This document shows, one piece after another, positions 8,056 through 35,215 of a stretch of 54,845 nucleotides of DNA. The notes beneath the pieces are model-generated. The model searched no databases and was not told the origin of the DNA. It saw only the letters and a program-made list of their open reading frames with translations. The stretch comes from Candidatus Micrarchaeia archaeon. GTDB lineage: Archaea; Micrarchaeota; Micrarchaeia; CABMEP01. The position numbers were made by a program, and so were the translations under genes. Within the stretch, counting starts at the first letter, position 1. Each line of letters starts with the position of its first letter. The stretch covers positions 1 to 54,845 of the forward strand of contig JAVZXS010000004.1 of assembly GCA_038886535.1 (NCBI GenBank). The letters run 5' to 3'.

Positions 8056-8067
8056 TTAATGATGGAA

Positions 8068-13897: not shown

Positions 13898-13918
13898 TAT
13901 TACACACTATATTATATT

Positions 13919-14033
13919 GTCAGCGGCCATAGGAACCGGGAAACGCCCGATCCCATTCCGAACTCGGAAGCTAAGCCGGTTCACGATGTTATTTGTACTC
14001 TCCTGTCGGAGGGGAAGATGCATTGCTGCTGAC
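13919..14033 (+). rRNA. rrf: 5S rRNA, unlinked from 16S/23S
   Basis: Terminal helix GTCAGCGGC/GCTGCTGAC; conserved CCCGATCCCATTCCGAACTCGGAAGCTAAGCC. Confidence 0.93.
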
Positions 14034-14076
14034 TTTATCATTCTTATTCTATTGCAAAAAAAACAATGATGATTGA

Positions 14077-15459: not shown

Positions 15460-15505
15460 TAGTATAGGAGTTACAAATACTATTATCTGATGGATGCGCT
15501 ATTCT

Positions 15506-18500
15506 TTAACTTGTTCCTGATTTTAGTGTATACTTGCCTACTGCGCATTGAGCAGTTTGAAGCAGTGTAAGCATCTTTGATGGATCGCACATTGAATAGT
15601 TTGTTTCCTTCATTGAGAATGTTGTAAATGATAATCCTTCAGCTGCATAATAATATCTTCCGCATCCTTCCCTGAACCATGCATCTGTCCATGGCTTGTT
15701 TGTCTTTCCTGAGGTAAGAAGACCATAGAAATCAAATGACGGACATGGGTCTGTCAAGCAGTATTGGGCTGTTCCAAGCACGCCTGAACCTGCAAGAATT
15801 GGAATCCATATTCCATAGAAATCTTGATATGCTGTTACAATAGATTCATCTGTCCAATTGCATGCTGAATTTGTATTAGATGTACCATCCTTTAATCCGA
15901 ATCTCATTATTATTGATGGTTTTGTGTAATTGTATAAACCAAGTTTTGATTTGTTTACTATTGAATTCATTATGTCTTCAAAACTGCAGGACGGATAATT
16001 GTTAAGGAATTCATCATAACCTATTACATCTACAAATTCAATTGCATTTTTGCCAAGTATTAGGGTTGAATTTGCTGAATTTAAAATATCCTTAAGCTGT
16101 GTGATATTAGCATCCCCGACATTTAAAACTGTAGTACAATTTGGACATATATTCTTGACAGAGGCAAGCTGCTGGAATGCACACAGCCTTTCAGATTCAT
16201 TTGAAAGATTCAGTCCGGATTCTGAGGCAAAGAATGTAACCGTAGCGGGACCGTATGGATTATAAGATGCACATTCAATCTGCTTTCCTGAGTCACAAGC
16301 CTGAGTTGCATAATCTAATCTCTCATAGCTTCCAATTGCAAGAGCCATTGAAGATAAGTCAGTTGAACAGTCTATATCTCCTGTTGAATTTATTATGGAC
16401 TTCACAGAGATTGGAAGCACGTTCTTTGTCTTATTATCAATATATACTAGTTCTTCAGTTTGTTGAGGTGAAAAGATCTGAATTTTTGAATTTGGATCAA
16501 TTATAATTGACTCTTCCCTGATTCCTTCTGGAGAAACGTAATAATAAAGTATTGAAATGTTGAATCCTTTTTGACCTGAACAACTGCATGTTGTAATTGA
16601 CATATTATTCTCTTCATTACCTAACTTAAGCAAACCTAAAGGTATCCTCCATTGTTGAGTTTGAGAATAGTTATCAATATAAGTAACACCCGACCCACTC
16701 GAATACTGACATCTAAATTTGGTTGTCGGTAAAATAGTTTGTCCATTTAAGAATATATTCCCGTTATCATTAAAAGAATAAATCAAATACGCTTTATAGG
16801 TAGATAACGGAAGCTTGAATGAAACATTAACCTGACTAACATCTGATCCATATAGTGGCGAATCACATGTTGTCTTTGGATAAGAAATACACTGTTTGAT
16901 TCCTAAATCACAATACTGGTTAGATGCACAGTGTGCATCGCTTGTACAATTTGTAGATGATTGACAGAATGCAGGAGAAGATGAAGAAGCATTTGTGCAT
17001 GCTGCACCGCTTTGCAATGAGTTACAATTTGTGGTGGAAGAACAGTTCTGCTTCTTTATACATTTCATTTCTTGACAAATTTCATCCAAATTACATTCTG
17101 AATCTGTAGTGCAAATCCTATCATGTAATATTCTGCAGAATCCATCTTGACATATCTCTCCAGATCTACAATCTGTTGAAGTTGAACATTTAACTGGGAT
17201 TTTACAGACAGAAGATTCGCATACTGATTGAATTCCATTGATCAGGCCACAATCAGAATCTTGTGAACAATTCTTTGAAATAACACATCTTCCTTCGATG
17301 CAACCACCTTCAAGACAGTCTGCATCAATTGTACACAATGGTTCTGTATAAGATGGACTATAAAGAGTACAATTATTTTCATTGGTAATAAAGTTGGTTA
17401 CGCATGCTGTATTGCTATCTTCGCTGCAATCTGAATTTGAAATACATGAGCTTGAAATACATGCCCTTATTTTTTCGCCATCTTCTGTTTCATCTACAAT
17501 TGTACAATACATTCCAATAGGACAATCGCTGTCTAAGCTACAATTATTGATTACTGGCATAGCACATTTACCTTGATAACATACTGAATTTATTGGACAA
17601 TCGCTGTTATCGGTACAACTTTCGATCATTGTGCATGTCTGAGACGAGCAGACAAAACCAGATGGACAATCTAATGAATTAGTACAGTTTGTTATACGTG
17701 TACACTTGTTGTTAATACAAATCGAATTTGGATCTGAAGAATAGCAATCAAAGGAATCTGAACATTGAATATCTAATGTAATACATTTCTTGATTCCAGT
17801 TCCATCATCAATACATTTACTATTGACTCCGCATTCTAAATCGGTTTGGCACTGTTTTGTAAGAATACATTTATAGTTATGGCAAATTGATGGAGATGGA
17901 CACTCATCATCCCTTATGCAGAATTTAATAGGATGACATCTTTTTTCTACATCACAGAACGAACCTTCCGGGCAGTCTGAATCATTCTTACATTCAATTA
18001 TATCCATCCATTCTGCTTTTAATATATTATAAAAGAATGAATCACTTGTTAAAATGTTATTTTGCAAAATAAGTTTGACAAAATTTGCAGAAGGTATTGC
18101 TTTGTTAAGTTGATGTGATTCTGAATCAGTGTTAATAAATGTGATAGATGTATTAGGTCTCAGAATAAGATCAGAAGGATCAAACATCTGTGACTTGACA
18201 ACTACTTCGATATCTTGTTTTATTGATTTAATGCCTGCAGCAACATCTGGCTTGTCTTGCAACCTTACAGTCCATGGCTCTGAATTGTATGGGAAATTAA
18301 GACATGTTTGCCTATCTGGATAAACATCAATATAACCATCACTCTTTACTCGATCTGGAACTGAAACTCTGTGTATTTTTCCATCAAGGCTTTGGAAACA
18401 TACTTCGCTCAGTGGGGATGTTGTAACGAAGGAAGGGGTAAACTCTGATTTCTGAATATCTATCTCTAATGGCTTATATCTGTCATAACCTTCAACTATC

Positions 18501-21500
18501 ATCATATTTCCAGTGTCTATATCCTCAACGACATAAGTCGAAGCTGGTGTGAAACAGAATTGCTCGATAGAACCGACTTTACATGTTTGTGTTAATTCAT
18601 CAAAACTGCAATCAACGTCCGGATAGGTTGGTTCGCATGAAATTAAATTCAAACTGCAATAAGAACCGTCGTCTTTTATTTTCTTTCCTTCTGATATTAA
18701 ACATGATGATCCATTAAGTTTGCATGATACTTTATCTTCATATCCTTGTTTAGGTGTGCATGTTTGAGTATACATATATTTACAATAATCACCATTATCG
18801 ACATTATAATTTGAAATTACTTTACAACCTCCTGGGGTTGAAACACAATTTATATTTCCTAGTGTTGAATAGTTGATCTTCTTACCGCATCCAAATTTAC
18901 ATGGACAGTTTTCTTCACTGCTGCATAAAAATACTGATGGAGAAGAGAACATACATTTTTCAGACTCTAAAATACAATTACTTGGAAATGGAGTGATTGA
19001 GCTTCCTCCTGTCTTAATGCTGCATGACTTAGCATATGTAACTGTTCTTTGGTTAGCTGCATAGCACTTGCATGCTTTGAAGCTTACACCAGGTTTCATA
19101 TATACGGTAAAGTTTGGATTATCTAAACCTGGAAAAACGAAATTATACTGTCCTGTTTTCAAGCATGTTTCAACTAATCTATCTCCTGAACAATTGTATG
19201 CATTTCTATTAAATATAGTACAGGAAGAAGACTTCTGATAAGACATACTTGCAAGAACATTGCTTCCGTCACAAGGCAGGGCACCGCACATTTTATTAGT
19301 GGGACATGTACATCTACCATCATAACCTATATCACATGCGTATGTTGTATAATATCTTTCAGTTCTTTGAGCAGTTGTTACTGAACAGAAACGATTGTCA
19401 GTCAATGTGTATGGATTTGATTTTTCTGCTGATGTCAATAATGAAGGTGTATAATAACAATATGGATCATTTATTGAGTTATTAATACAACCTATATCTG
19501 AGTATAAACCAGTTGGACTACATATTATATTATTACCTGATTTTTGGACATTACATAATAAATTAGATACATCTGTCTTTTCCTTCCCTGAAAAGTAATT
19601 AAATTGAAGAAGACCAGTACTTGAAACTGAACAATTAATTATCGAAGCTAGAGAAGAATCCTTAACTACAGAACCACCACTACATGCTCCACCATCTAAT
19701 CTTGCTTGGAACAGACATTGTGGTTGAATGCCTGGCACTCCAGGTTGAGTATCTTTAGAATAGTCTGTTGTGCATTCTAAATCATTTGAATACTGGTCTT
19801 TGACAACACATGAAATATTATTATCTAATCTACATGCTATTGATGGATTAATTAAATAATAAGAGCAATATGTAGATGGATCTGATTCATTTACTATTCC
19901 TGTGCATCTATAATCTCCAGTCTGCTGCTTTACAGAACAGTTATAAATTCTCTTACAAACGCTACCTGAATCTATCGCTTGAATACCTAATGGATAAATA
20001 GTTCTTTCAGCTATCTTCTCACCAGTATCTAGGTTAGTAATTGATATATTCCTAGGAGAGTCTGGAATAAAACATACTTTGCTATCGTGATCAACCGCAA
20101 TTGATTTAGTTTCAAACTCCCCATTTCTAATGGAAATATTAATGATTGAATTCCTGACAACTATCTCTCCAGTGCCAACAATTATTGTATTATTTCTAAC
20201 TGTATAAGTTGCATTTCCAGCCTTGTCTGGAATCCATGTTACAATCCCTGGAATTCCATTTGCATATTTAGGAAGATTTAAACTATATGTATGATCAACG
20301 TTTAATTCATCTGTAAGTTTAATTTCAACTCTATAATCCGAATCAGGATCATAGTTATTGAATTTGACAGGCCCACCAACTGCAACCATTCCAGATTCTG
20401 GATAAATAGGAGTTGATATTATCCCAATATTTGCATCATAAGCAACTGTTGTAATGTTTCCTTTCATGTTGGAAAGCTGATCATAGAATTGGAATGATGT
20501 ATTTTTTGGCGTGTCGGAAGTTGAATTTGATTGTAATGGTAATAGAGTGAAAGATCTTGAAGAAATGATATTGCTTTCATTTTTAATTAAATCGATTGTA
20601 TGGTCGATTACGTCCTTGTTTGTGAATGTAATTGTACTTCCTGCAGGTATGAATGCTTCAGATGGAGAGAAAACAGATGAATGTATCTTTACTGTGACAT
20701 TGTGGAATGAAGGAATAAGCAATGACATTGCGCCTTCATCTGCATACTTTCTCATATCATAAAGAATTTGAGAGGATAAATCTCCATGAATAACCTGAGT
20801 TGGAAGATCTAATGTTTGATTGTTTAGTGGGTTTTCTAATATGGATTCGTTTGTATCTGCAAAGGTGATCACGATGGTCTTATTTGTATTATTTTCATAA
20901 AGTATTGAAGTATAAGGTTCAATTGGAGCAGGCAGTATTAATAAATCCCCATTTGAACCTGATTTATTTAATTTTATCTGTGGAGGACCTAATATATTTA
21001 TCGGGATCTGTGACAATGCATTTATTATGGTTTGATTTGTAATTCCACTTCTAGTCAAATTTTCTTTAATAGTTAAATCAGTTAATACTGTACTTTGACT
21101 AATTTCAAATAAATAAAATGAATTAGACAAAATATTAATTTCATCTCCATTTGATTCTACTCTTATAGTGTGGTTTTTATCATCAGTATTTTCCACATAA
21201 AGCAATAGCTTTGTATAGCTCTTAACTGGAGAATTAATTATAGTAATTTCATTTTCGGTTTTCACTATATCTGCCAATCCAGTTGAATTAGCCAATAAAG
21301 TAATATAGGAAATCTCATACAACTCAGATGGAACGCTCTGCCTGTTTATGATCTTGAAATACGAAGGAGAGGTGATGTATAATTCTCCTGATTGAGTCAT
21401 ATTAACATTTGGTGGATTTACAAATAGTGAAAATGGAATAGGACCTCTTGGAGCCAAGATTGCACCTTTACCATCTATAACTCCAACATCTGAATAAATC

Positions 21501-23881
21501 TCCTTTCCATCCAGCTGGCGCGTATAAATATTTCCTTCCTGCATAGTAGACTTATCTATACAGTTTGTTTGCGATGGAGCTAAGATTATGTAATTTCCAT
21601 TTTCATCTTTTAAGGTGTGATTCTTATTATCGTTATTAATCCAACATATTTGAGAGCCAGGCTTTACAATTAATGAAATAGTATCGAAGCCTGCGCCACC
21701 TGAGAGTATTTGGATGTTTCTTGAATCAACCTCTTTAATATTCACAATGTTCTTCACATCTAAATTAGGTACAAATGTAGTTACATATGAATCTGTCTTG
21801 TTCATAGTGGGCCAACATACATTATCTGAAAGTGGTGGGATCTTGCCTGAGAAGAATGTCTTTCCTGACGAAGATTTCGTTATAATATTTCTTGAGATTG
21901 CTGATGGATTAACCCAGCATATCTTTGTTCCAGGTGTACTTTCTACTTCTTCAGGTTCAAAACCAATAGGCTGAATAGAAACTGTTGCGGAAGGCTTTCC
22001 ATTTCCTATTGTCCAATTTGCAACTCTTCCATCTGTTGTTATTCCCTGATATTTTCCAGGTAACGCACCTTTAATGCAGCAATATGAATTTGTAGACAAT
22101 GTTTCATTAGTCAGCCATATCCATTCATATCCATTTTCAGTTTCTGTGTATCTTGAAATTGAAATGCTTAAACCTTCAGTTTCGCTTCTAAAACAAATCA
22201 AATCTCCAAGCGGCCTGTATATTTCATATCCTGGATCAATAGTTCCATCTCTCTTAAACAAGAATCTCTGAAGTGGAGACTGAACGAATAAATAACCAGT
22301 TTTACCTGTTGTGATATCATTAATCTTATACTCTCCTGTTTGTGGCGCTCTTATTGTTTCAACTGGATTTGAAAGATTGAGAGTAAAATTATTTTCATAG
22401 CTATAATTATCAAATCTATTCACACTTGTCATACTCAAGTTATGCTCTTTTCTTTCAATCAGGCTAAAATTAACAAATCCATCTGCATTAACCACTGTAT
22501 AATTCGGAACTATATTATTTCCTATATAAATCTGAGTAGTATCTTTTGCGCTTAGTACTGATAAATAAGCATAGTCTCCATTTGAATCTTTTATGTGATA
22601 AAAGCCTTCATATGGTAGATAGCATGAAGATTGTTTTGGCTGAAGAATGTATTGTCTCACTATACTTTGATCCTGAAGATTGATTATAGTTATATCATGT
22701 CTCTTATTGTCTTTATTATCAATACAGAGCTCTAAGCCTGATGGGATTGTCATAAATGGAGGATCAAATGTTGTATTTCCAAGTGAGATGTTTACTATAG
22801 TTTCTTTCCATGGGACACAGAGCTTCTTTGCCTCTTCATAATCCTGGAATGATGGGCCTTGGCCTAACATAAAGAATGGAACCTGTATTTTTCCAGCTGG
22901 CTGTGTTTCTTTAGTAACTGGATTGTATGAATACGTTCCATAATATGATTGAAGATAGTTGCTAAGCTTGCTGAATGGGGTATTGTTATCAAGAAATGTT
23001 CTTCCGCCCTGGAATGTAGAAAATGAGTCATAACTGCAGTTTACAAAATCATATGATTCTGAAGTATAAACATTTTTACATCTCCAATTAACATTATAGC
23101 TTGCGAAAGGTGTACAAGAAATAAAGTAAGAAACATCCATGTTTGATTTGTGTTTTTTATTTGGCCAACTACCGTATTCTTTTCCAGTAACTGTCCATGT
23201 ACCTAAAAAACTAAGATTCCCAACTAATCTGTTATTTTCTGGAGTTAAAGTTAATGGTAGTACGAAAAACGAGTATTGTCCATCAAAATGGTCTCCTGGA
23301 GATAAGATGTCAGATGAACCATCAAACATCAAGGTAAATGAACCCCCCTGATATTTACCTTTTGAAACACTAACAAATACACCTACATAACATTTCAAAG
23401 TTAGATTACTCATTCCATAAGATATTGGTGATACTACATTTCTTGAATCTTCTAATGTTATGCTACCACCATGTGGAGTCCCCACATGGCCTGAACCTGA
23501 CATTATATAGCTATTTCCTGCTAAAACTAGATATGTATTTGTTTCCTCACAACTCCAACCTTTTTCAGCTGAAAGAGAATAAGTCACTTCGTCGACCTTT
23601 GAATAAGAAGGACCTATGGGTCCTTTACAGATATAATCAGAAGTTGCAGTTCTCTTCTCCTTAAGAAAAGCACCGCAGGTAGATTCATTGTAACCAGCAC
23701 AGACATCGCTTCCTTTCGTTACCGTAACTGGAACTGTTGTACTTATCCCTTCTCTTGGCTTTAATTCAATGCATCCAGAGACAAGAATAAATATTAAAGA
23801 AAAGATGATCAGAAAAACCATCATATTTGAAAAAGATGAAGGCTTGATTTCAATTTCTTTTTTCATTTCAGATTTATTCAT
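15506..23881 (-). CDS. Giant (2791 aa) predicted surface lipoprotein with cupredoxin-fold repeats, Cys-rich repeats and an alpha/beta C-terminal domain
   Basis: Hydrophobic N-region ending LVSG|C (lipobox-like); repeated F(D/E/S)Px5-6PGxx(I/V)x(W/F)xNxDxxxH units; 14 C-x5-C-xn-C-xn-C units; many NxS/T sequons. Confidence 0.8.
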   Translation of the reverse strand: MNKSEMKKEIEIKPSSFSNMMVFLIIFSLIFILVSGCIELKPREGISTTVPVTVTKGSDVCAGYNESTCGAFLKEKRTATSDYICKGPIGPSYSKVDEVTYSLSAEKGWSCEETNTYLVLAGNSYIMSGSGHVGTPHGGSITLEDSRNVVSPISYGMSNLTLKCYVGVFVSVSKGKYQGGSFTLMFDGSSDILSPGDHFDGQYSFFVLPLTLTPENNRLVGNLSFLGTWTVTGKEYGSWPNKKHKSNMDVSYFISCTPFASYNVNWRCKNVYTSESYDFVNCSYDSFSTFQGGRTFLDNNTPFSKLSNYLQSYYGTYSYNPVTKETQPAGKIQVPFFMLGQGPSFQDYEEAKKLCVPWKETIVNISLGNTTFDPPFMTIPSGLELCIDNKDNKRHDITIINLQDQSIVRQYILQPKQSSCYLPYEGFYHIKDSNGDYAYLSVLSAKDTTQIYIGNNIVPNYTVVNADGFVNFSLIERKEHNLSMTSVNRFDNYSYENNFTLNLSNPVETIRAPQTGEYKINDITTGKTGYLFVQSPLQRFLFKRDGTIDPGYEIYRPLGDLICFRSETEGLSISISRYTETENGYEWIWLTNETLSTNSYCCIKGALPGKYQGITTDGRVANWTIGNGKPSATVSIQPIGFEPEEVESTPGTKICWVNPSAISRNIITKSSSGKTFFSGKIPPLSDNVCWPTMNKTDSYVTTFVPNLDVKNIVNIKEVDSRNIQILSGGAGFDTISLIVKPGSQICWINNDNKNHTLKDENGNYIILAPSQTNCIDKSTMQEGNIYTRQLDGKEIYSDVGVIDGKGAILAPRGPIPFSLFVNPPNVNMTQSGELYITSPSYFKIINRQSVPSELYEISYITLLANSTGLADIVKTENEITIINSPVKSYTKLLLYVENTDDKNHTIRVESNGDEINILSNSFYLFEISQSTVLTDLTIKENLTRSGITNQTIINALSQIPINILGPPQIKLNKSGSNGDLLILPAPIEPYTSILYENNTNKTIVITFADTNESILENPLNNQTLDLPTQVIHGDLSSQILYDMRKYADEGAMSLLIPSFHNVTVKIHSSVFSPSEAFIPAGSTITFTNKDVIDHTIDLIKNESNIISSRSFTLLPLQSNSTSDTPKNTSFQFYDQLSNMKGNITTVAYDANIGIISTPIYPESGMVAVGGPVKFNNYDPDSDYRVEIKLTDELNVDHTYSLNLPKYANGIPGIVTWIPDKAGNATYTVRNNTIIVGTGEIVVRNSIINISIRNGEFETKSIAVDHDSKVCFIPDSPRNISITNLDTGEKIAERTIYPLGIQAIDSGSVCKRIYNCSVKQQTGDYRCTGIVNESDPSTYCSYYLINPSIACRLDNNISCVVKDQYSNDLECTTDYSKDTQPGVPGIQPQCLFQARLDGGACSGGSVVKDSSLASIINCSVSSTGLLQFNYFSGKEKTDVSNLLCNVQKSGNNIICSPTGLYSDIGCINNSINDPYCYYTPSLLTSAEKSNPYTLTDNRFCSVTTAQRTERYYTTYACDIGYDGRCTCPTNKMCGALPCDGSNVLASMSYQKSSSCTIFNRNAYNCSGDRLVETCLKTGQYNFVFPGLDNPNFTVYMKPGVSFKACKCYAANQRTVTYAKSCSIKTGGSSITPFPSNCILESEKCMFSSPSVFLCSSEENCPCKFGCGKKINYSTLGNINCVSTPGGCKVISNYNVDNGDYCKYMYTQTCTPKQGYEDKVSCKLNGSSCLISEGKKIKDDGSYCSLNLISCEPTYPDVDCSFDELTQTCKVGSIEQFCFTPASTYVVEDIDTGNMMIVEGYDRYKPLEIDIQKSEFTPSFVTTSPLSEVCFQSLDGKIHRVSVPDRVKSDGYIDVYPDRQTCLNFPYNSEPWTVRLQDKPDVAAGIKSIKQDIEVVVKSQMFDPSDLILRPNTSITFINTDSESHQLNKAIPSANFVKLILQNNILTSDSFFYNILKAEWMDIIECKNDSDCPEGSFCDVEKRCHPIKFCIRDDECPSPSICHNYKCILTKQCQTDLECGVNSKCIDDGTGIKKCITLDIQCSDSFDCYSSDPNSICINNKCTRITNCTNSLDCPSGFVCSSQTCTMIESCTDNSDCPINSVCYQGKCAMPVINNCSLDSDCPIGMYCTIVDETEDGEKIRACISSSCISNSDCSEDSNTACVTNFITNENNCTLYSPSYTEPLCTIDADCLEGGCIEGRCVISKNCSQDSDCGLINGIQSVCESSVCKIPVKCSTSTDCRSGEICQDGFCRILHDRICTTDSECNLDEICQEMKCIKKQNCSSTTNCNSLQSGAACTNASSSSPAFCQSSTNCTSDAHCASNQYCDLGIKQCISYPKTTCDSPLYGSDVSQVNVSFKLPLSTYKAYLIYSFNDNGNIFLNGQTILPTTKFRCQYSSGSGVTYIDNYSQTQQWRIPLGLLKLGNEENNMSITTCSCSGQKGFNISILYYYVSPEGIREESIIIDPNSKIQIFSPQQTEELVYIDNKTKNVLPISVKSIINSTGDIDCSTDLSSMALAIGSYERLDYATQACDSGKQIECASYNPYGPATVTFFASESGLNLSNESERLCAFQQLASVKNICPNCTTVLNVGDANITQLKDILNSANSTLILGKNAIEFVDVIGYDEFLNNYPSCSFEDIMNSIVNKSKLGLYNYTKPSIIMRFGLKDGTSNTNSACNWTDESIVTAYQDFYGIWIPILAGSGVLGTAQYCLTDPCPSFDFYGLLTSGKTNKPWTDAWFREGCGRYYYAAEGLSFTTFSMKETNYSMCDPSKMLTLLQTAQCAVGKYTLKSGTS
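16890..17995 (-). repeat. Tandem array of 14 four-Cys protein repeats (CxxDxDC...C...C) inside the giant protein
   Basis: e.g. CKNDSDCPEGSFCDVEKRC, CIRDDECPSPSICHNYKC, CTDNSDCPINSVCYQGKC, CSTSTDCRSGEICQDGFC, CTSDAHCASNQYCDLGIKQC. Boundaries approximate. Confidence 0.85.
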
Positions 23882-23973
23882 CTATTCACCTTCTTCATCT
23901 TTTCTTCTTGATTTAATTTATACGTAAAGCATTTAAGTTTAATTTATTATTTATTGAAAAAGTTCTATTATTT

Positions 23974-24741: not shown

Positions 24742-24763
24742 ATTATCACTCCAATATCGCAGT

Positions 24764-26011: not shown

Positions 26012-26025
26012 AATTTCACCGTATC

Positions 26026-27162
26026 TCAGATCATTCTTGCCAAACCAGAGATGTCTACTTCCTGGCCTAATGCCTTGCTTAATTCTCTGACGATTGCTAC
26101 TAATATAATCCAATTAATTGCAGGCAATATAAAAACATATAAAATCACACCGCCTGTTGCAATATATGCCTCGTTCAGTCTATCTATTGCTTCTCCACCT
26201 TTGCCGAATAATGAATTGTAGATAGTTATAAGACTGCCTAAAGGAGCTGCTGATAGTGCTACAGATTTGGCTACAGCACTATTTATCTCACTTTCCCAAT
26301 CCATATCTGGCAAACCTACATTTGGATCTGGCTGACCAATAATCATGTATGAAAATGAAAACAGTAATGGATAGAAAAAGAATAAGCCTACACTTATTGC
26401 AATCAGGACACCGCCTAAATCTCTTGTTGGCGAAAAACATCTCAATACTACTCCTGCTGGAAGAAGCAGATTAAGGAAATACAGCTGAATTGCATCTAGC
26501 ACCACAATATATCCAGTAATCAATGAATATGAAAGTTGAACTAGACTGGAGAACCAGTTAAGAGCACCTATTGTAATTCCATACCCTGCAAAAGGTTTAA
26601 AGTAAACTCCTATATGCAGAAATGCGCCCAAGTCTATAAAGTTTGGATTGTTTATATTGAATGTAGATAATCCAGTTATAATCATCATTGCATTTGTACA
26701 TTTAAGATAGGCATTAAGCGCTGATGCCCTTGAGTATTCAAGATACATTCTTGCTCCATCGAAAAATGAAGTAAAATTAAATCCAAATTGAGATGCATCA
26801 ATGCTACAAATAAAGAGCAATATTGAATAAAGAACTCCAAGCATTATTGCGGTCACAACTACCTGGATCATATCTGTCTTAGCTCTAGCTATAAGTTGTG
26901 GGGAATCTAAAGATTTACCTATTAAATATGCAAAAATTAACAGAAATAAAGAAACCAATAATCCAATAAATGACAAAGATTTCCAATTCTGTTCTACGCC
27001 TATGGCACTGTTGCTTTGATTTCCAAAATCCAAAAGCAATGCAACTTCACAACCATTTGGCATATTGTCTTGGTTAGTATTTGTTTGAGCATGTACAGGA
27101 TTAAGTAGAATAATGAGAAGCTGCAAAGCTAAATACAATATATGTTCGAATCTCATTTTCAT
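26026..27162 (-). CDS. CedA/VirB6-like polytopic membrane protein, paralog 5
   Basis: ARAKTDMIQVVVTA; LPAGVVLRCFSPTRDLGGVLIAISVGLFFFYP; ends ELSKALGQEVDISGLARMI. Confidence 0.65.
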   Translation of the reverse strand: MKMRFEHILYLALQLLIILLNPVHAQTNTNQDNMPNGCEVALLLDFGNQSNSAIGVEQNWKSLSFIGLLVSLFLLIFAYLIGKSLDSPQLIARAKTDMIQVVVTAIMLGVLYSILLFICSIDASQFGFNFTSFFDGARMYLEYSRASALNAYLKCTNAMMIITGLSTFNINNPNFIDLGAFLHIGVYFKPFAGYGITIGALNWFSSLVQLSYSLITGYIVVLDAIQLYFLNLLLPAGVVLRCFSPTRDLGGVLIAISVGLFFFYPLLFSFSYMIIGQPDPNVGLPDMDWESEINSAVAKSVALSAAPLGSLITIYNSLFGKGGEAIDRLNEAYIATGGVILYVFILPAINWIILVAIVRELSKALGQEVDISGLARMI

Positions 27163-28310
27163 ATCAATCTCACCAATGTGCTGAAGTCTATCTCTCCACC
27201 TAGCACCTCTGCAAGCCTCTTAATTATATTTAGAACTACTAAATAAGCTACAAATGGAAGAATGGTAGCTTGTATTAATAAAACTGTTGTCAGACTTTCA
27301 AAATCGCCTCCGACTCCAAAGTATTTTTGAAGAGTTGAAAGAACTTCGTCTTTAGCTATTTTTATTCCTATTTTTACTTGCTCAAAAAATCCTATTGATG
27401 GCGGATGTATTGAACATACATCTTTTTGATAAAAATGATAACCTATATCCTCTATGATCAAATAAAATATGGGCAGAAAAATTGTAAATCCGAATGTTAT
27501 TGCTATCATCGCTGCTCCTGCCCCCCTGGTATATGGAAATGATCTCAATATCAATCCAAGTGGAAGCACGATACTAAACAATGCAGAATTCAGTTTTAGT
27601 ATTTCAAGTTGAAGCTTAAGCTGGATAATAGTTGTTGCAAGCGCACCTATTAGAACTGACATTATAGAAGTGAGACCTCCTCCGGTTGGAAATAATGGAT
27701 AAAAGTTGCTAAATGAACCAGAAATTAATTGAATAGAGGTGGATGCTAAAGAGGACAATGAAGAGGATATTCTTACTATTTCCAATGTTGCGTCTTTAGT
27801 GTAACTTAAAAGACAGCCTACATATTTTTCAGAATGTGACTGGACATTTATCCATTTAGTATCTGAAAGTGAACGAACAGTGCTTTCAGCCGGATATGCT
27901 AGATTTGAATTATAAATTGCAGGTGCGAAAATGTTTAAAGAAGCTAAAAGGCCTAGATAAACAGAAAGAATTACTGCTGTGCCAAGTATTTGATAAAGAA
28001 ATTCTTTAGACCATTCTTTAATTCTTGTATGCTCGAATGCAATGCCCAGACCATAAAATATTGAGCCTATAATGATACCGATTAAAATTAGTATTGTACT
28101 CAAATTGACTAATAAGTCAGGGACACATACATTGTTGTAAAGATATGTTCCAAAGTAACCGCATTCTGTTGCAGCAAAGGATATTGAAATTAAGATGAAA
28201 AATATAATTAAGCTTCTTGCAGATAAATCTAATATCGAACTTGCGTTTTTCTTTTTCTTTGTTTTATTATTTTTCATAAACTCACTTACACCAAACATCA
28301 TAGTATCCAC
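27159..28310 (-). CDS. CedA/VirB6-like polytopic membrane protein, paralog 4
   Basis: KEWSKEFLYQILGTA; LPLGLILRSFPYTRGAGAAMIAITFGFTIFLP; ends RLAEVLGGEIDFSTLVRLI. Confidence 0.65.
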   Translation of the reverse strand: MDTMMFGVSEFMKNNKTKKKKNASSILDLSARSLIIFFILISISFAATECGYFGTYLYNNVCVPDLLVNLSTILILIGIIIGSIFYGLGIAFEHTRIKEWSKEFLYQILGTAVILSVYLGLLASLNIFAPAIYNSNLAYPAESTVRSLSDTKWINVQSHSEKYVGCLLSYTKDATLEIVRISSSLSSLASTSIQLISGSFSNFYPLFPTGGGLTSIMSVLIGALATTIIQLKLQLEILKLNSALFSIVLPLGLILRSFPYTRGAGAAMIAITFGFTIFLPIFYLIIEDIGYHFYQKDVCSIHPPSIGFFEQVKIGIKIAKDEVLSTLQKYFGVGGDFESLTTVLLIQATILPFVAYLVVLNIIKRLAEVLGGEIDFSTLVRLI

Positions 28311-28324
28311 TTATTTTCATATGC

Positions 28325-29512
28325 TTAAATGATTCTTGTAAGACCTGCTATTTCAGGATCTCCACCTATCATTGGTGAGAAATGTCTTATAAATCCAAGA
28401 GTGGTAAAAATTGCAAGGATTGGTACTACTATTATTGGTATGTATGACCTCCCTAATGAATCTAACATTCCGATTGAAATTACAGATCCGTTCTCATCAT
28501 ATTTTGTAAACAATAAATCAACATTTCCTAAACCCCCAATCCCACCAGTGAAGAATGAAAGCGGATCATCGGAGGATACAGGTTCTGGAAGATCCACTTC
28601 AAATATTATTGCAGATCTGTCAATCGTGTACCAACTTAAAACATAAACCATTGGAAATATTAAATATAAGCCTATGCCTGCAGCTACAAACAGACCTCCG
28701 AATTTTCTTAAAAACCAAACTGAACGCGAGATTATTCCAAGTATAAAGAACATGCCTGCAAGAGATGAAAGATAAGCTAAAGCAATTTCTTGCATTTTTA
28801 TGGCTGTAATTATTTTCAAATACTCGCTTACTACTGTTGCTAGTATATTGTTATATATAGTTAAACCTGCATTCAACGGAAATCCCATTCCAAACTCAAA
28901 TTTAAATTTGCCCCAGGTAAAATCAACACCAGATCCTACGGATTGAGTGGAATAGAACACTGAAACGAAATAATATTGGGCGATACTCTTTAAAGACCCT
29001 CCATATTTTTCATACAAAGAACCTAGGAAGCCTCTCGCCATATATATGTAACATGGGTATTCGCAAGATGGGTTGGAAGTTTCTACTGTTTTCCACCTGC
29101 CCTCATTTGGTATATATTGCCAGTAACTTATGTTTCCTGAAGCACTTGCAGAAACACTTGAAGATAGAACGTCTTTAGATAAAGAATTTGCAATTTGTTC
29201 AGCTACACCGACAAATGCGGTAAATAAAACAAGAATTGCAATTGATATAATAAGATTCATTGCCTCTTCTCTTGTCCATGCCTCTAACTCACGCATTGCA
29301 AATACTTTAGATATCATAAATGCGATTCCTAATAGTAGTGCAACAATAAGTATAACTAAATATGCGATTAGAATCCAATCAACATCTGTATGAAAACCGA
29401 AAACATCTTGAGCTGCAAATGAAAATGAGACAAATAAAAATAGAATAAACACTACCGTAGCCACCTTTCTATCGCATCTGTTACCTTTGTTATTTATTTT
29501 GTCTAACACCAA
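28325..29512 (-). CDS. CedA/VirB6-like polytopic membrane protein, paralog 3
   Basis: EAWTREEAMNLIIS; LGIISRSVWFLRKFGGLFVAAGIGLYLIFP; ends HFSPMIGGDPEIAGLTRII. Confidence 0.65.
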   Translation of the reverse strand: MVLDKINNKGNRCDRKVATVVFILFLFVSFSFAAQDVFGFHTDVDWILIAYLVILIVALLLGIAFMISKVFAMRELEAWTREEAMNLIISIAILVLFTAFVGVAEQIANSLSKDVLSSSVSASASGNISYWQYIPNEGRWKTVETSNPSCEYPCYIYMARGFLGSLYEKYGGSLKSIAQYYFVSVFYSTQSVGSGVDFTWGKFKFEFGMGFPLNAGLTIYNNILATVVSEYLKIITAIKMQEIALAYLSSLAGMFFILGIISRSVWFLRKFGGLFVAAGIGLYLIFPMVYVLSWYTIDRSAIIFEVDLPEPVSSDDPLSFFTGGIGGLGNVDLLFTKYDENGSVISIGMLDSLGRSYIPIIVVPILAIFTTLGFIRHFSPMIGGDPEIAGLTRII

Positions 29513-29513
29513 T

Positions 29514-30386
29514 TTATCCCCTTAGTTCAATGAAATCATATTTAAATATCTCTGCAAGCGCTCTTGCTGCCCCAATTGTAATAATACTACTTAAAGCAGG
29601 AAAGAATACCGCCTGTGGCAAAAGCAATCCAACATCAGTTAATATAGTTTGAATTTCATTAGCAGAGACACAATCATTTGCATCTGTATCAATCGGAGAT
29701 AATGAAATCCCTTCAGTTGCCTTTTGCGCGAAAACATAGGTTAAAGGCAAGATAATATAAAATGCAAAGGCAATGGCAATAACATATGAAGATGCGTCTT
29801 TAAATCCTGGAATCAAGCGAAGAATTATTCCGATAGGAAGTAGATAAGTGAATGCTATCTGGCTTATAAAAATTAAAGCATACTGCTGAATCAAAAGACT
29901 GGCAACGAATGGAGATAACATAAATGAAAAATTCTCATACACTGATGCAACATTATCACAACCTGCCTTTGGCGAATACATAAAATTGGCAAATGCGTCA
30001 TAATACGCTGTTTCTATCCTTATATTCTTTGCTTTCTCATACAAGGAATTTATAATACTGCTTAATTTTGAATTGATTGTGTTAAGGTAGTTAATTGAAG
30101 ATGTGAATGGACTCTCATCTTTAGTTATTGAACATGATAATGAACACGTAATGTTGGCAACTATTGCGATTAATCCGATCCAAATAACTGCAACTGACAG
30201 GTGGTATAATTCTAATCTTATCATTGCCTCCCAATCGCGTCTATTTAGAAATCTAGATATCATAAAGCCTATAGATATTCCAAGCAGAACTATGAATATT
30301 ATCATACCAGCTAAAGGAAGCCAGTTTGAATACTCTGATGATAATGTGCATGTGCTTAAACATGTTGGTATATCGCTAAATCCCAT
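29514..30386 (-). CDS. CedA/VirB6-like polytopic membrane protein, paralog 2
   Basis: EAMIRLELYHLSVA; LPIGIILRLIPGFKDASSYVIAIAFAFYIILP. Confidence 0.62.
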   Translation of the reverse strand: MGFSDIPTCLSTCTLSSEYSNWLPLAGMIIFIVLLGISIGFMISRFLNRRDWEAMIRLELYHLSVAVIWIGLIAIVANITCSLSCSITKDESPFTSSINYLNTINSKLSSIINSLYEKAKNIRIETAYYDAFANFMYSPKAGCDNVASVYENFSFMLSPFVASLLIQQYALIFISQIAFTYLLPIGIILRLIPGFKDASSYVIAIAFAFYIILPLTYVFAQKATEGISLSPIDTDANDCVSANEIQTILTDVGLLLPQAVFFPALSSIITIGAARALAEIFKYDFIELRG

Positions 30387-30409
30387 GGTCTAACGCTCCT
30401 TGTATTATT

Positions 30410-32038
30410 TCATATAAGTTCTGAAACTCCTAGTATTTGAACTTCCCCTCCAATAGCTGGAGAAATTGACCTTATACCAGTTATGACTGTAAATATGATT
30501 ATAAACGGAATAAGCAATACTGGAACTGCATCTTGCATTACATATGGAGTGTATGCAAGCGCGATGTTTGTTAACTTGATTGCTAGGTATTGATTCATGT
30601 TTGCATATAGAGAAGCTGTCAAAACCGATACTTCATACTGCCCAAAGTTCATTAATTGCTGCAGAACTGGCATAATGTAATTTATAGTTATCACATTTGA
30701 TGGAATTAAATGGAATATAAATGTGGATGCAACACCTGCAATACCTAGACTTACAATAGTTGCACTCGCTGAAGCTAATTGATCAGAGATTGGTACATCA
30801 AGAATCATGCTTAAAGAAGCAACTCTCAAAACAGAAAGAACGTTTTGTATTGTATTTATATTATCTAACCCGCTTCCCACGTCAGACATGCCACCAAGCA
30901 TAGAGCATATCATTGTAAATACTGGAGCACAAGCTGGAGCAGCTATCCCACATATCGAAGAAAGAGAAACTGCTCCGGTTGCACAACTTGGCAGTAGTGA
31001 TTTATCTCCATTACTTAAAATTGCATATTGGGCAATTGCTAACTGTGAAAGCAAATCTAAAGCTTCATAAGCAAACACCTCTGTTGTAAATCGATCTATA
31101 TTTGAATTTCCTGAAGGTCTACTTATCGCAGGAATTGAAGAATTCGGCTTAAATGCAGAATCATACATTGTTTGAGCAATTATTATGGAAAGCGGAACAA
31201 AAAGGTAGAGCCCCACCCCAAATGCAATTATGGTTCTTCCCATTTTTCTTGTGAATGCAAATATGCTCAAAAACAATCCAAATGGAATTAAAAATGGAAT
31301 TGCAATACTATTTATAAAATTCAATAAGATATGAGAAAATATAGAAATTGCTAAAGAAGTTAAAGTTATAGATTGAACTAAGTTAAAATGACCATTAAAA
31401 ACATCTGCAGCATAAAATGTTAAGTAATTCATTTTAAAAGATTTAATAGCTACCATCCAGATTCTATTTGGTGTCTCTGAAGACTGCACTGGTTTACCAT
31501 CGTTGCCTCCTGTAGCTTGAGTACCACTTCCTTGATTTATCTGACCGCTTTTATCCGATGTGGAAGATGTTGCTCCTAAATATTGGACTGGTGGACCTGA
31601 AAGCATACCTACTGCTGCACCTAGCTTAACAGAATCAATATATCTATCCATCAGCCTTTCTGAAATCCTATTTGTGAAATCAAGTGAAAGATCTGTTGGT
31701 TTCATTCCTAAGGTCGCAATGAATAGATTGTCAATTACTCCCAATGTTATTAGTATTATTAAAACTAAGAATGCACTCCCAGTTACCTCAAACAATTCTG
31801 CTCTTGCCCATGTTTCCATCTGTGGAAGTTGGAAGGTTCTTGCTAACATGAATGCAAGTCCAGTTATTCCAAATCCTATCCCAATCGCAACTGCAAACAA
31901 AGGAAACCAATTAGGAACATACTGCTGCCATGTCTGTTGGCTTTGTGTTTGCGTTTGAGCACAAGCAAAAATAATTAAGCTAAACAGAATGAATAATGAA
32001 TAAGTAAACTTTATATCTAATTTATTAGATTTCTTCAT
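30410..32038 (-). CDS. CedA/VirB6-like polytopic membrane protein, paralog 1 (longest, first in operon)
   Basis: ETWARAELFEVTGSA; IPFGLFLSIFAFTRKMGRTIIAFGVGLYLFVP; ends SISPAIGGEVQILGVSELI. Confidence 0.62.
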   Translation of the reverse strand: MKKSNKLDIKFTYSLFILFSLIIFACAQTQTQSQQTWQQYVPNWFPLFAVAIGIGFGITGLAFMLARTFQLPQMETWARAELFEVTGSAFLVLIILITLGVIDNLFIATLGMKPTDLSLDFTNRISERLMDRYIDSVKLGAAVGMLSGPPVQYLGATSSTSDKSGQINQGSGTQATGGNDGKPVQSSETPNRIWMVAIKSFKMNYLTFYAADVFNGHFNLVQSITLTSLAISIFSHILLNFINSIAIPFLIPFGLFLSIFAFTRKMGRTIIAFGVGLYLFVPLSIIIAQTMYDSAFKPNSSIPAISRPSGNSNIDRFTTEVFAYEALDLLSQLAIAQYAILSNGDKSLLPSCATGAVSLSSICGIAAPACAPVFTMICSMLGGMSDVGSGLDNINTIQNVLSVLRVASLSMILDVPISDQLASASATIVSLGIAGVASTFIFHLIPSNVITINYIMPVLQQLMNFGQYEVSVLTASLYANMNQYLAIKLTNIALAYTPYVMQDAVPVLLIPFIIIFTVITGIRSISPAIGGEVQILGVSELI

Positions 32039-32086
32039 TGATATTATATTAATAAAAAGATTTAAAATTCAAACTTATATAATGTA
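32039..32086. promoter_or_regulatory. Very short AT-rich divergent promoter region
   Basis: 48 nt between head-to-head genes, containing TTTAAAA and TTATATAA TATA-like words. Confidence 0.45.
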
Positions 32087-35000
32087 TTGATACAAATGAA
32101 AGTATCTGGATTAGTTATTATACTTGTCCTCTTTGCAATCCCTCTAGTTTTCACAGTTAATATCTGTCCTGTAGATAAAAATCCAACTGAAATTATAATT
32201 CAGCATTCAAGGCACCCGATAAATATACCTGTAGGTATAACTGATAATACAATTGATGTTAATATACAGCTTAATGCAATTGATAGGAAAACACAAAATA
32301 GAATACCTCTTGCAAACAAAAATATAACTATAGAATTAGTAATAGGAAGTAAATTTGTAACAAAAAATGCAGCAGGTGAGTTTGTCCTTTCAGATGAATC
32401 AGCACCTTTTGTAGTAAATACAAATGAAAACGGGAGTGTTTCTTTTACAATATATACTCAACCACCCTTATTAGAAAACTCGACAGATCCTAGAAAGATC
32501 TCATATTCAATAACCGCTACATTTACACCGAAACCGAAAGAACCATTTATGGGAAGCGCGAAAACAGAAAGATATGTACCCGGAGTATTTCCGTTAATAA
32601 GTTTGACTGCTTGTGCCCCTCTTTTCATAATATTTGCACTCCTTGTTGCTGCAATGTTTGCATCTGGAAAGAATCCGTTTGGTCTATTTGACTTTTCAAG
32701 AGTTGCATTTAAAGCACCAGGAATCTCTGGAGGTAGAGTCACTACAAGGCAAAGAACTACATTATTAGGTACTGCTGTGGGTGCAGCACAGAGTGCATTA
32801 AAATCTGCTACCTCAACCGGTGCATACAAACTTGCAAAGTTCCTCACTCCCTCAATTGAAGAAGAAAAAAAGGCAAAAGGAACCTTTGGAATATTGCAAA
32901 AGATATCCTCTATACCTGGAAAAGTATTAATGAGTACTACTTCCAGAAGATTGAATAAAGAAGAATTAGAAAAATTAAAGAAAGCGGAACAAGCTGCAAA
33001 AGGAAAACTAACTACACAAGAAATGGAAGATGTATTGGGTGGAAATAGAAGAATTGTTAAAGGAGTTTTTGGTGAAATAAGAGTTGTTACTGCATCAGAT
33101 AAAGTATCAAGTTCATCATTATTAGATTTATTCAGACAAACGTTCTTTCTCTCATTAGGCAGAATGGGTGTAAGACCTTGGAGTTTATCTTATGCTTCGA
33201 TACCTGAGATCAGAAGACCATCAAAAGAGATATACACTAAAGAAGAGCAAGAAGAGATAAAGAATAAAGTAAATTCAACATATGGATATAGTTTTAGTTT
33301 AGAAAAGGGAGATATAGATGTGTATGGATTGACTGAGAAGGGAAAGATGAAAATATTGAATGCGATAGCTAAAGATGAAGTTGCAAATTTAGAAACGTTA
33401 AGAAATGTAATAGAGGCATTAAAAAGAGGGGCAATAGTAAAGCCTGCAGAATTACAAGATATTAGAACATATCTAGATAGTAGAATCCAAAGAATTGAGG
33501 AACAACTAAAATCTGTTTACTTAAGTGATGAACAAAAATCTAGACTTATAAAAGAAAAATCTGATTTAAGTGTAGAAGATACAAATAAATTAATAAGAAA
33601 CTTAGAAAGGATTCTTAAAGAAGATACTGAAAGGCTGCTTAATAGAATTAGTAGCAATGGAGCATTAATAGGTTTTGACAAAGAATCTTTGATAATAGCA
33701 AGAAAAATCAATGCGAAAAAATACTATAGTAACTATGGAGTTGATGAATTTAAGTCCAAATTGAGAGACGTGAAAGAATTGGCTGATGCTTATGGAATTA
33801 ATGTTCAACGAATTTATGAAGCATATGAAAGCGGTGATCCAAGTAAGATTAATACTGTTCTAAAAGAGAACCTAGAATTAATTAAAGACGATTCTAATAA
33901 AATAGCTGCATTTAATTATATTATAAAAGACATACAAATAGGAACTATCCATAGATTTTTAGACCAATTAGAATTGACTGATGAAAAAGGAAGAAAGATA
34001 ACTAATCCCAATGAAAAAATAATTGCCTTTTCTAATATGAATTATGAGTTGCCAGAGAATAAAGAGAAACTCACTAAAAACATAATAGATACATTAGATC
34101 TTGAAAAGAAACTTTACTCAAAAGGATTAGAAAAAGCCGTAAAGATAGTTAATGGAGAGAAAGCGAATGTTACACCAGAAACAGTATTATTTACTGTTTT
34201 AAAGGGTGAAGAAATAATAAATAACAAAATAAAAAACCTTCAAAAAGAACTAGAAGAACTCAATATAAAATATAGAAATCCAACAATTGGTACCCCAGGT
34301 TATGACGAAGTTAAATCTAAAGAAAAGCAGATTGAAGCTGCAAAATTTGAATTAGAAAACGTAAGAAAAGGAACAGAATTCATTAGAAAAGAAAGAGATA
34401 ATCTTTTATTACTGAAAGATATATATGAAAATGCTAAAGATATTCCTTCATTGTCTGCTGTCAGTTCTTTGACTGTAGATTCTGCAATGATAATGAAAAA
34501 AGCACTTGAGGCAGCAGAAATAAAATCTGCTGCAGAAACCACCAGTAGTATAAATTCCGGAAATGGATACACTCGTTATAAACTTGATGAAGCACAAAAA
34601 GACCTAAATAAAGCACTTGAACTCTTATCACCACCATATAAATTAAATGAAAGTGAAATTAAGTTACGAGAAGGCTTAAGTAAAGTAAAAGAAGATTTCG
34701 AAAAATATAATTCTGAAATCTACATTCCCAAAGATAATAATCAAACATTCGCAGTAGCGGGAAAATTAGATTCATTGAATAAGCAAATTAAGGAAGAAAT
34801 ACAAAAACTAGAAACTTCATATAAATCTAAGGAAGTGCATTCACCTGAAGAAAGAACTAGATACAATGAGCTCTTGAAACAGCTTAATAATTTAAATACA
34901 AACATAACTGCAGGTAAAGAGAGAACAGAAGAAGAGATAAAGAAACACATACAAACTAACAGATATAACCCATTCGCAAGTTTAATAGATGAAATTGAAT

Positions 35001-35215
35001 ATAAACACTTTAGTGAAGATGGAATTAAGCCAGAAATATTAGAGAAAAAACTCAACGAAAATAAGATTTTTGGAACTGGAACTATAATCTACATTTATTC
35101 CGGCAAAAAAGAGTATGAGAAGAACATGGAAGAAGAAAAAAGAAAGTGGATTGAAGCTTTTTATAGTGGAGTATCAAAAGGCAAATTTACTGATATTAAA
35201 GTCAAAAATAAATAA
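32087..35215 (+). CDS. Large single-pass membrane protein: signal peptide, Ig-like ectodomain, TM, long coiled-coil-rich region
   Basis: N-terminal hydrophobic leader; beta-rich PLANKNITIEL..TNENGSVSF..YSITATF; TM PLFIIFALLVAAMFA followed by GKNPFGLFDF; ~800 aa K/E/L-rich helical region. Confidence 0.7.
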   Translation: MIQMKVSGLVIILVLFAIPLVFTVNICPVDKNPTEIIIQHSRHPINIPVGITDNTIDVNIQLNAIDRKTQNRIPLANKNITIELVIGSKFVTKNAAGEFVLSDESAPFVVNTNENGSVSFTIYTQPPLLENSTDPRKISYSITATFTPKPKEPFMGSAKTERYVPGVFPLISLTACAPLFIIFALLVAAMFASGKNPFGLFDFSRVAFKAPGISGGRVTTRQRTTLLGTAVGAAQSALKSATSTGAYKLAKFLTPSIEEEKKAKGTFGILQKISSIPGKVLMSTTSRRLNKEELEKLKKAEQAAKGKLTTQEMEDVLGGNRRIVKGVFGEIRVVTASDKVSSSSLLDLFRQTFFLSLGRMGVRPWSLSYASIPEIRRPSKEIYTKEEQEEIKNKVNSTYGYSFSLEKGDIDVYGLTEKGKMKILNAIAKDEVANLETLRNVIEALKRGAIVKPAELQDIRTYLDSRIQRIEEQLKSVYLSDEQKSRLIKEKSDLSVEDTNKLIRNLERILKEDTERLLNRISSNGALIGFDKESLIIARKINAKKYYSNYGVDEFKSKLRDVKELADAYGINVQRIYEAYESGDPSKINTVLKENLELIKDDSNKIAAFNYIIKDIQIGTIHRFLDQLELTDEKGRKITNPNEKIIAFSNMNYELPENKEKLTKNIIDTLDLEKKLYSKGLEKAVKIVNGEKANVTPETVLFTVLKGEEIINNKIKNLQKELEELNIKYRNPTIGTPGYDEVKSKEKQIEAAKFELENVRKGTEFIRKERDNLLLLKDIYENAKDIPSLSAVSSLTVDSAMIMKKALEAAEIKSAAETTSSINSGNGYTRYKLDEAQKDLNKALELLSPPYKLNESEIKLREGLSKVKEDFEKYNSEIYIPKDNNQTFAVAGKLDSLNKQIKEEIQKLETSYKSKEVHSPEERTRYNELLKQLNNLNTNITAGKERTEEEIKKHIQTNRYNPFASLIDEIEYKHFSEDGIKPEILEKKLNENKIFGTGTIIYIYSGKKEYEKNMEEEKRKWIEAFYSGVSKGKFTDIKVKNK

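Follow-up and report, generated by a model that had tools for sequence, protein, structure and literature searches.

An ordered array of six membrane protein genes in Micrarchaeota: candidate VirB6/CedA-like platform of a machine derived from type IV secretion

A 54,845-nucleotide stretch of DNA from a Candidatus Micrarchaeia archaeon (GenBank assembly GCA_038886535.1, contig JAVZXS010000004.1; NCBI phylum name Microcaldota), called the window below, carries on its minus strand, between positions 24764 and 32038, six co-oriented and closely spaced open reading frames (ORFs), which are diverged paralogs of one polytopic membrane protein family. These six genes encode ancient, distinct versions of one membrane protein. 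We consider, with a probability of about 0.6, that they are VirB6/CedA-type proteins, most likely forming one hetero-oligomeric platform of a chromosomal machine derived from a type IV secretion system (T4SS). The set is probably the membrane base of an undescribed apparatus for cell-surface contact or transfer. The window is the entire 54.8-kb contig C4 of a 1.14-Mb assembly of 40 contigs that is 88% complete.

The six paralogs have a summed length of 2437 amino acids (aa) and are numbered here in the order of transcription. Position 1 (30410..32038, minus strand, as are the other five) encodes 542 aa with about 10 hydrophobic segments, and matches the family hidden Markov model (HMM) with an E-value of 3.3e-44. 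Position 2 (29514..30386, 290 aa) is a minimal form, and is followed by position 3 (28325..29512, 395 aa), position 4 (27159..28310, 383 aa) and position 5 (26026..27162, 378 aa), all three identified as ORFs and by the family HMM. Position 6 (24764..26113), 449 aa as the longest ORF, matches the HMM with an E-value of 1.2e-113. The spacings from position 1 to position 6 are 23, 1 and 14 nucleotides (nt), a 4-nt overlap and an 88-nt overlap. The last of these comes from the choice of the longest ORF: the start of position 6 is likely to be Met35 (26011), which would give a protein of 415 aa and replace the overlap with a 14-nt gap, because the relative P0008 (96% identity, 92% coverage) is 416 aa long. 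All 15 pairs among the six were linked by BLASTP at E <= 0.002, the majority at 1e-5 to 1e-13, and the family HMM matched 12 of the 2396 ORFs of the genome: the six in the window and six more, which form a second six-gene array on contig C1 (44838-52704). An earlier note on this DNA, made from the sequence alone, had described six packed, co-oriented and diverged membrane paralogs, and the ORFs, BLASTP pairs and HMM matches agree with it.

The three shared motifs named in that note can likewise be read in an alignment of the six paralogs. They are a helix that follows the first transmembrane (TM) segment, the block LPxGxxLRxFPxTRxxG...P, which is degenerate in three of the six, and a C-terminal (L/I)G(G/Q/A)(E/D) tail, present in five and missing from the 290-aa protein of position 2. 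Position 6 is the most conserved position of the array and has a Cys-rich N-terminal ectodomain. This ectodomain, the N-terminal ~100 aa, contains a short Cys-rich knot; weak matches to DUF7107 were seen in 7 of 36 family members and to Dickkopf_N in 4 of 36, and both repeat families also weakly match the giant lipoprotein encoded next to the array (15506-23881).

Scans of the six paralogs, their partners and 36 family members against Pfam and NCBIfam returned noise-level matches only and no family model, and PDB sequences searched with profiles built on three alignments gave nothing beyond designed or unrelated proteins. When 1.84 billion representative proteins were searched with a profile, 2924 matched at E <= 0.001 and 2026 at E <= 1e-10. 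Among 151 sampled genomes of the phylum (a tally that includes G029, flagged as unpublished) the family is present in 135, mostly with 6 to 13 scored matches each. Three of 23 long family members have N-terminal immunoglobulin (Ig)-like domains or ectodomains, which fits an outward-facing N-terminus.

The number and order of the genes are conserved. Six family genes were found in each of the 19 arrays examined at the ORF level, 16 of which were clear at once and three after a stop-to-stop rescan. These arrays come from 16 genomes in 10 family-level groups, and include both arrays of the present genome. A FastTree tree was built from 109 family proteins, each 200 aa or longer; it omits a single row of 139 aa and locus L059, which was added later. 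Proteins from the same array position grouped together, with clades for position 1 (17 rows, support 98), position 2 (support 83), position 3 (18 rows, support 99), position 5 (18 rows, support 98) and position 6 (19 rows, support 98). Position 4 was less clean, with 14 of 15 rows in one group shared with position 5. The position labels required 18 changes on the tree, compared with a mean of 75.3 when shuffled, and none of 200 shuffles gave a value as low. Thus the six positions are mostly separate orthologous clades, and their order is fixed across the phylum. The window and C1 arrays fall on different sub-branches within each position clade, indicating that the whole set was duplicated long ago.

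The genes found next to the family in relatives point to type IV secretion. Family members that occur in single copy form a separate seventh clade with a support of 100 (FastTree). At seven loci examined at the ORF level (L053-L058 and L063) a single-copy member of 345-363 aa lies directly upstream of a gene for a protein with two TM segments (2-TM) and a DUF87/AAA_10/TrwB-type ATPase gene. A VirB2/TrbC-type (PF04956/PF18895-type) or homologous pilin gene is found directly upstream of the single-copy member at six of the seven; at L056 no pilin was recognised upstream of the family gene. These loci often contain a second DUF87 ATPase gene (676-855 aa) further downstream. Adjacency of family and ATPase genes was seen in 11 more genomes, by coordinates only. 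Where a genome has one detected family gene, this is the ATPase-linked one in five out of five cases, two of which are f11 genomes with no array detected.

Complete arrays also occur in this context. Two genomes of one family-level group (f7), G006 (locus L041) and G078 (L044), encode on one strand one or more pilins, six family genes, two 2-TM genes and the ATPase. The 2-TM proteins match a 273-aa protein encoded on contig C2 of the present genome (E 1e-64 to 1e-80), and the ATPase is 56-57% identical to the 523-aa ATPase of the same contig. In the other four sampled f7 genomes pilin genes lie 3-7 kb upstream of the family genes on the same strand, by coordinates only. G139 has on one strand an array followed by genes for a 1294-aa lipoprotein and a 1689-aa bitopic protein, and this module, which is of the same type as that of the window (array, lipoprotein and bitopic protein), runs directly into a 2-TM gene and the ATPase gene. 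Altogether, three of the 19 arrays are contiguous with the ATPase. A physical link with pilins is found in G123 (L046), where the position-1 and position-6 members carry N-terminal pilin domains (E 8.4e-21 and 1.2e-10) within a single open frame, at L046:14158-15873 and L046:7309-8700 respectively. The N-terminal part of the family HMM weakly matches the fused pilin. Separately, an intein that carries a homing endonuclease of the LAGLIDADG type splits the VirB4-like ATPase of G006 (L041:3485-6628; Intein_splicing E 1.7e-20, LAGLIDADG_3 E 8.7e-24).

The three components have nearly the same distribution across the phylum. The family was detected in 135 of the 151 genomes, the ATPase in 135 and the pilin in 134, and an identical set of 16 genomes was negative for all three. 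The one additional pilin negative is G076, in which the family gene lies at a contig start. No genome (0/151) has the family without the ATPase.

The earlier note had proposed a whole-genome search for a VirB4-type ATPase and VirB2-like pilins, and both were found on contig C2. Three TrbC-like pilin genes (54117-55344) are followed there by the gene for the 273-aa 2-TM protein, the gene for the 523-aa DUF87/AAA_10/P-loop_TraG (VirB4-like) ATPase (56295-57866) and genes of 160, 248 and 873 aa; a fourth pilin gene is located at 67504-67860. This operon is orthologous to the array-containing operon of the f7 genomes, and in the present lineage the arrays have apparently become separated from the operon of pilins and ATPase. 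A VirB2-type pilin and a VirB4-type ATPase are thus encoded with the family in relatives and in the genome as a whole, not within the window. The operons of relatives, the C2 operon and the phyletic pattern correspond to a chromosomal system of pilin, membrane protein and HerA/VirB4-like ATPase without a relaxase.

We compared predicted structures of the paralogs with that of VirB6, whose fold has about seven long helices, five of them hydrophobic; the paralog models show six to seven long helices. The AlphaFold2 (AF2) model of position 4 has a predicted local distance difference test (pLDDT) score of 70, and its first Foldseek match was TrwI, the VirB6 protein of R388 (E 0.065). A wide VIA search with this model placed TrwI at rank 1 of 48161 chains (Z 7.4, root-mean-square deviation (rmsd) 7.8, 205 residues), with DotA second (Z 7.0). 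The AF2 model of position 2, obtained with a 142-row alignment, has six long helices, a pLDDT of 88.5 and a predicted TM-score (pTM) of 0.83. Foldseek placed TrwI chains at ranks 1, 2, 3 and 5 for this model (E 0.041-0.14), and in a second look with VIA the best match was TrwI chain 8rt9_F (Z 9.4, rmsd 6.4, 227 of 290 residues). The alignment runs end to end (model residues 12-285), while the next rows cover 85-145 residues. A co-fold of positions 4, 5 and 6 (993 trimmed residues, 14-row alignments, run without controls) gave a score of 0.01.

Sequence comparison also hints at a relation of the family to pilins. With filters off, the best non-family matches of the family HMM among the 2396 ORFs were two of the C2 pilins (E 0.0074 and 0.046), in a collinear alignment of about 90 residues covering the signal peptide, TM1, loop and TM2. 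This echoes the N-terminal likeness reported between VirB6 and VirB2 and between CedA and CedA1 (PMC9905601). When the family and the pilins of the genome were compared, hhalign returned 51% for a match of 20 columns and, once larger alignments were used, 1.4%. An Atlas neighbour cluster (score 0.88) has Pfam CedA1 on 23% of its members, which we regard as a lead only.

The neighbouring genes on the two strands include members of two families that recur beside arrays elsewhere. Directly after the array, across a 22-nt gap, a minus-strand gene (23974..24741) encodes a 255-aa single-TM protein with a hydrophobic segment at residues 22-40 and nine sequons. Its sole homolog found, also with jackhmmer, belongs to L036, a locus of the same genus; at L037, L040, L043 and L049 the corresponding place is taken by small single-TM genes with no detectable kinship to it. 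After a further 92-nt gap the same strand encodes a predicted lipoprotein of 2791 aa (15506..23881) with the lipobox-like motif LVSGC, 138 Cys, 70 N-x-S/T sequons, a cupredoxin-like domain and Cys-rich repeats. A lipoprotein family linked to it by BLAST (710-2791 aa) adjoins 10 of the 19 arrays.

On the plus strand, divergent and 48 nt from position 1, lies the gene for a 1042-aa bitopic protein (32087..35215). An N-terminal signal or anchor segment and an ectodomain of ~140 aa precede a TM segment at ~163-200 and a predicted cytoplasmic tail of ~840 aa, which has no family match and is conserved only within the genus. Relatives of the N-terminal module (residues 1-330: ectodomain, TM and juxtamembrane part) are encoded beside 13 of the 19 arrays, either upstream and divergent or downstream. 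An Atlas look-up of the first 340 residues gave scores of 0.78 or lower, with hints of Ig-like clusters, and no Walker A motif was seen in the two bitopic proteins examined. The C1 array is followed by genes for a bitopic-family protein of 587 aa and a lipoprotein-family protein of 710 aa (lipobox-like LFGC), so that both arrays of the genome have both partner families. The arrangement given in the earlier note, with a membrane-anchored protein and the 2791-aa lipoprotein on the array strand and the 1042-aa gene divergent at 48 nt, was accurate, and the linkage of the array to the giant and coiled-coil genes, whose conservation it had left to be checked, was found (13/19 for the bitopic and 10/19 for the lipoprotein family). 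The bitopic gene is followed on the plus strand by a gene (35291..36148) for a 285-aa protein with no family match, whose sole homolog found holds the corresponding place in L036; its membership of the system is uncertain. At L038, L040, L046 and L049 a third partner family was observed, whose proteins have ~920-1006 aa and lack TM segments; its genes are divergent from or adjoin four arrays of the type that lacks the giant lipoprotein.

A number of results weigh against a VirB6/CedA-type platform, or limit the figures given for it. The Pfam model of VirB6/TrbL, PF04610, gave no match at E <= 1 in the six paralogs or in the whole genome, and none at E <= 5 in 36 family members. The hhalign probability was 0.18% when R388 TrwI was the only target, and 0.35% when 165 rows of the family were aligned with TrwI and 120 homologs, a profile test of low power as these homologs are all at least 51% identical to TrwI. 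The Foldseek E-values exceed 0.01, with TM-scores of 0.23-0.35; VIA Z-scores below ~13, as all of those here are, may reflect a common helical arrangement; and a wide VIA search with the position-2 model left VirB6 outside the top 50, the best match having Z 8.3 and the matches being unrelated helical proteins. CedA, CedE and TedA were compared by description only. The array loci were picked from hit clusters (20 loci, with a few added later), so that counts out of 19 are biased. Shared ancestry inflates the phyletic match, the negative genomes falling in six family-level groups (f10, f11, f15, f16, f17 and f19), and the ATPase query may also catch HerA-type paralogs. The C2 operon of the present genome holds no family member, and its arrays are unlinked from pilins and ATPase. 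Among the partners, the lipoprotein family was defined by BLAST single linkage, and jackhmmer with the last 311 residues of the 2791-aa protein found relatives only within the genus.

Judged by sequence, membership of the Pfam TrbL family fails, while the reading that the proteins work like VirB6/CedA has good support from gene context. The likeness to CedA and VirB6, which the earlier note had drawn from the motifs, is partly upheld by indirect evidence, namely gene context, phyletic pattern, pilin fusions, an N-terminal likeness to VirB2-type pilins and a weak fold match over the whole length, but not by any TrbL/VirB6 profile match. The Foldseek comparison that it suggested gave TrwI as the first match for two models, but with weak scores (E 0.065 and 0.041).

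The separation of arrays from the pilin-ATPase operon would also be expected if the family descends from VirB6/CedA but the arrays have been exapted as a passive membrane raft or anchor, which displays giant lipoproteins in an S-layer-like or adhesin-anchoring role and no longer works with a pilus and ATPase. Arrays in the present and most other genomes are unlinked from ATPase and pilins, only three of 19 being contiguous with the ATPase, and they retain partners of their own in the lipoprotein and the bitopic protein. The Ig-like ectodomains on three of 23 long members and the Cys-rich ectodomain of position 6 would suit such a display function. We nevertheless regard this possibility as rather unlikely: each of the 151 genomes in which the family was detected also has the ATPase, entire arrays stand within an ATPase operon in the f7 genomes and in the G139 cluster, and the G123 fusions of pilin domains to array members suggest that a tie to pilins persists.

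It is less probable still that the family is unrelated to VirB6, and forms a lineage-specific multi-subunit permease or a complex for lipid or solute uptake that resembles VirB6 only as a generic bundle of long helices. The lack of a sequence-profile link to TrbL/VirB6 would be explained in this way, as would Z-scores below ~13, which may denote a common helical arrangement, and the wide search with the best model, which gave only unrelated helical proteins. Such an origin would however make coincidences of the slot between a VirB2-like pilin and a VirB4-like ATPase, the pilin fusions and shared phyletic pattern, the pilins as best non-family HMM matches, and VirB6 as the first Foldseek match of two models with end-to-end alignments. 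No transporter family was matched in the Pfam and NCBIfam scans of the family, which also argues against a permease.

That the array block belongs to an integrated conjugative or other mobile element can be rejected in spite of its parts related to type IV secretion and of bacterial-looking T4SS-like clusters on contigs C7 and C8 of the assembly, since the window has no relaxase, integrase or coupling protein, its flanks hold core genes (Orc1/Cdc6, aIF2-gamma, L7Ae, Rpo4, KsgA, class I LysRS and Pus10), its G+C content is even across the region, and the six orthologous positions across 10 family-level groups indicate vertical descent. The earlier note had already judged that the region does not look like a conjugative element, and no VirB4/HerA-type ATPase, relaxase or integrase was recognised among the 34 other ORFs of the window. 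The clusters on C7 (~5800-25500) and C8 (~10500-20000) encode VirB4-like ATPases of 868 and 804 aa; in one of them a TrbC pilin is strongly matched (48 bits, C8:18933-19199) and small secreted proteins are numerous. Both clusters have a bacterial appearance, and could belong to plasmids or to contigs that contaminate the bin.

If the six proteins are a VirB6/CedA-type platform, a working scheme can be proposed. The machine would be chromosomal, vertically inherited and descended from type IV secretion in the manner of Ced and Ted. Its six non-interchangeable subunits would assemble in the cytoplasmic membrane into one putative hetero-oligomeric complex. By analogy with bacterial VirB6, this platform would receive the VirB2-like pilins encoded on C2, and the VirB4-like ATPase encoded beside them would drive it with the 2-TM protein as an adaptor, so that in the present genome the arrays would work with unlinked pilins and ATPase. 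The platform may also carry or position the two partners: the giant, Cys-rich and presumably glycosylated lipoprotein would face outwards and serve adhesion, and the bitopic protein with its long cytoplasmic tail would act as a cytoplasmic tether. A role of the machine in host contact, with passage of material, would be in keeping with these parts. More tentatively, and with less confidence than in the platform itself, the array, both partners and the unlinked pilins and ATPase may together constitute a host-contact and transfer organelle of Micrarchaeota whose base is a VirB6-like hetero-hexamer. Such an organelle would expose an adhesin specific to the lineage and carry DNA, protein or lipid between the symbiont and its host, and its base would match a six-fold ATPase rather than the five-fold bacterial stalk.

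The bacterial VirB6 ring is a base for the recruitment and polymerisation of VirB2 pilins, with a tip protein seated on the ring. The R388 stalk has at its base a homopentamer of VirB6, each subunit of which has seven helices; the first helix is the proposed site of VirB2 recruitment and VirB5 lies on top (PMC9259494). The present proteins are like VirB6/TrbL (TrwI of R388; PDB 7o3v, 8rt9 and 8rtd) in being polytopic, with long and mostly hydrophobic helices, and in the location of the gene between a VirB2-type pilin and a VirB4-type ATPase in relatives; the N-terminal module may also be akin to VirB2-type pilins. They differ in comprising six distinct, ordered subunits instead of a homopentamer (PMC9259494). 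No VirB5, VirB3, VirB8 or outer-membrane parts were recognised here, and the system has a giant lipoprotein and a bitopic protein as its partners.

Ced of Sulfolobales and Ted of Thermoproteales, which are chromosomal, non-mobile T4SS derivatives, each combine a pilin like VirB2 with a membrane protein like VirB6 and an ATPase like VirB4 (PMC9905601). In Ced, CedA has a five-TM paralog, CedE, and the ATPases CedB and CedD work jointly (PMC11868833). The system described here is likewise archaeal, with a chromosomal pilin, membrane protein and ATPase, and its single-copy operons hold two DUF87-type ATPases as Ced has two. Ced has one or two CedA-type proteins, whereas here there is an ordered set of six; moreover, Ced is induced by DNA damage and imports DNA. 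The present system belongs to a DPANN lineage and has other partner genes.

Tandem VirB6 genes have been described in Rickettsiales. Rickettsia has five paralogs, RvhB6a-e, of 674-1154 aa (PMC2653234), and the VirB6-4 protein of Anaplasma, one of VirB6-1 to VirB6-4, reaches 4322 aa (PMC7648143). The parallel lies in a host-dependent organism with a reduced genome in which several VirB6-type genes stand in tandem, strongly diverged from one another and in some cases greatly extended. Unlike the family described here, the rickettsial proteins match PF04610. The two expansions are independent, one bacterial and one archaeal; the order of the six genes here is conserved throughout the phylum, and the large surface part is for the most part encoded apart, by a lipoprotein gene. 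Patescibacteria (candidate phyla radiation, CPR) include ultra-small epibionts in which a chromosomal T4SS has been retained; it comprises VirB4, VirB6 and diverged VirB2 pilins in arrays, and has no relaxases, and some of the T4SS genes are essential for epibiotic growth (PMC12102498). These organisms are bacterial, their VirB6 is recognisable by existing profiles, and the part of that report covered here describes no six-fold VirB6 set (PMC12102498).

The finding bears on the attachment of DPANN archaea to their hosts and on the exchange of material between the two. Tomography in the phylum has revealed nanotubes, which were assigned to the host, and the accessible part of that study names no symbiont genes (PMC11329633). 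The literature covered, with supplements and subscription journals outside its scope, yielded no paper on this array or on a T4SS-like system in the phylum. What we provide is a concrete, phylum-wide candidate gene set: six ordered VirB6-like subunits and two conserved partners, with pilins and ATPase encoded elsewhere. It would be an archaeal counterpart of the expanded tandem VirB6 genes in Rickettsiales and, if the six proteins do form one ring, would mean that a VirB6 platform can become a fixed hetero-oligomer.

Three other genes of the window were observed in passing. The gene at 14077-15459, convergent with the end of the giant lipoprotein gene, encodes 460 aa with six hydrophobic segments, for which no family was matched. 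At 42361-43167, in a position unrelated to the array, lies a gene for a 268-aa membrane protein with a weak match to Peptidase_A24, the type IV prepilin peptidase family (E 1.1e-4, below the cut-off). Finally, 4922-6880 encodes a full-length RelA/SpoT homolog (HD_4, RelA_SpoT, TGS and ACT domains) in an archaeon, adjoining a DJ-1/PfpI gene.

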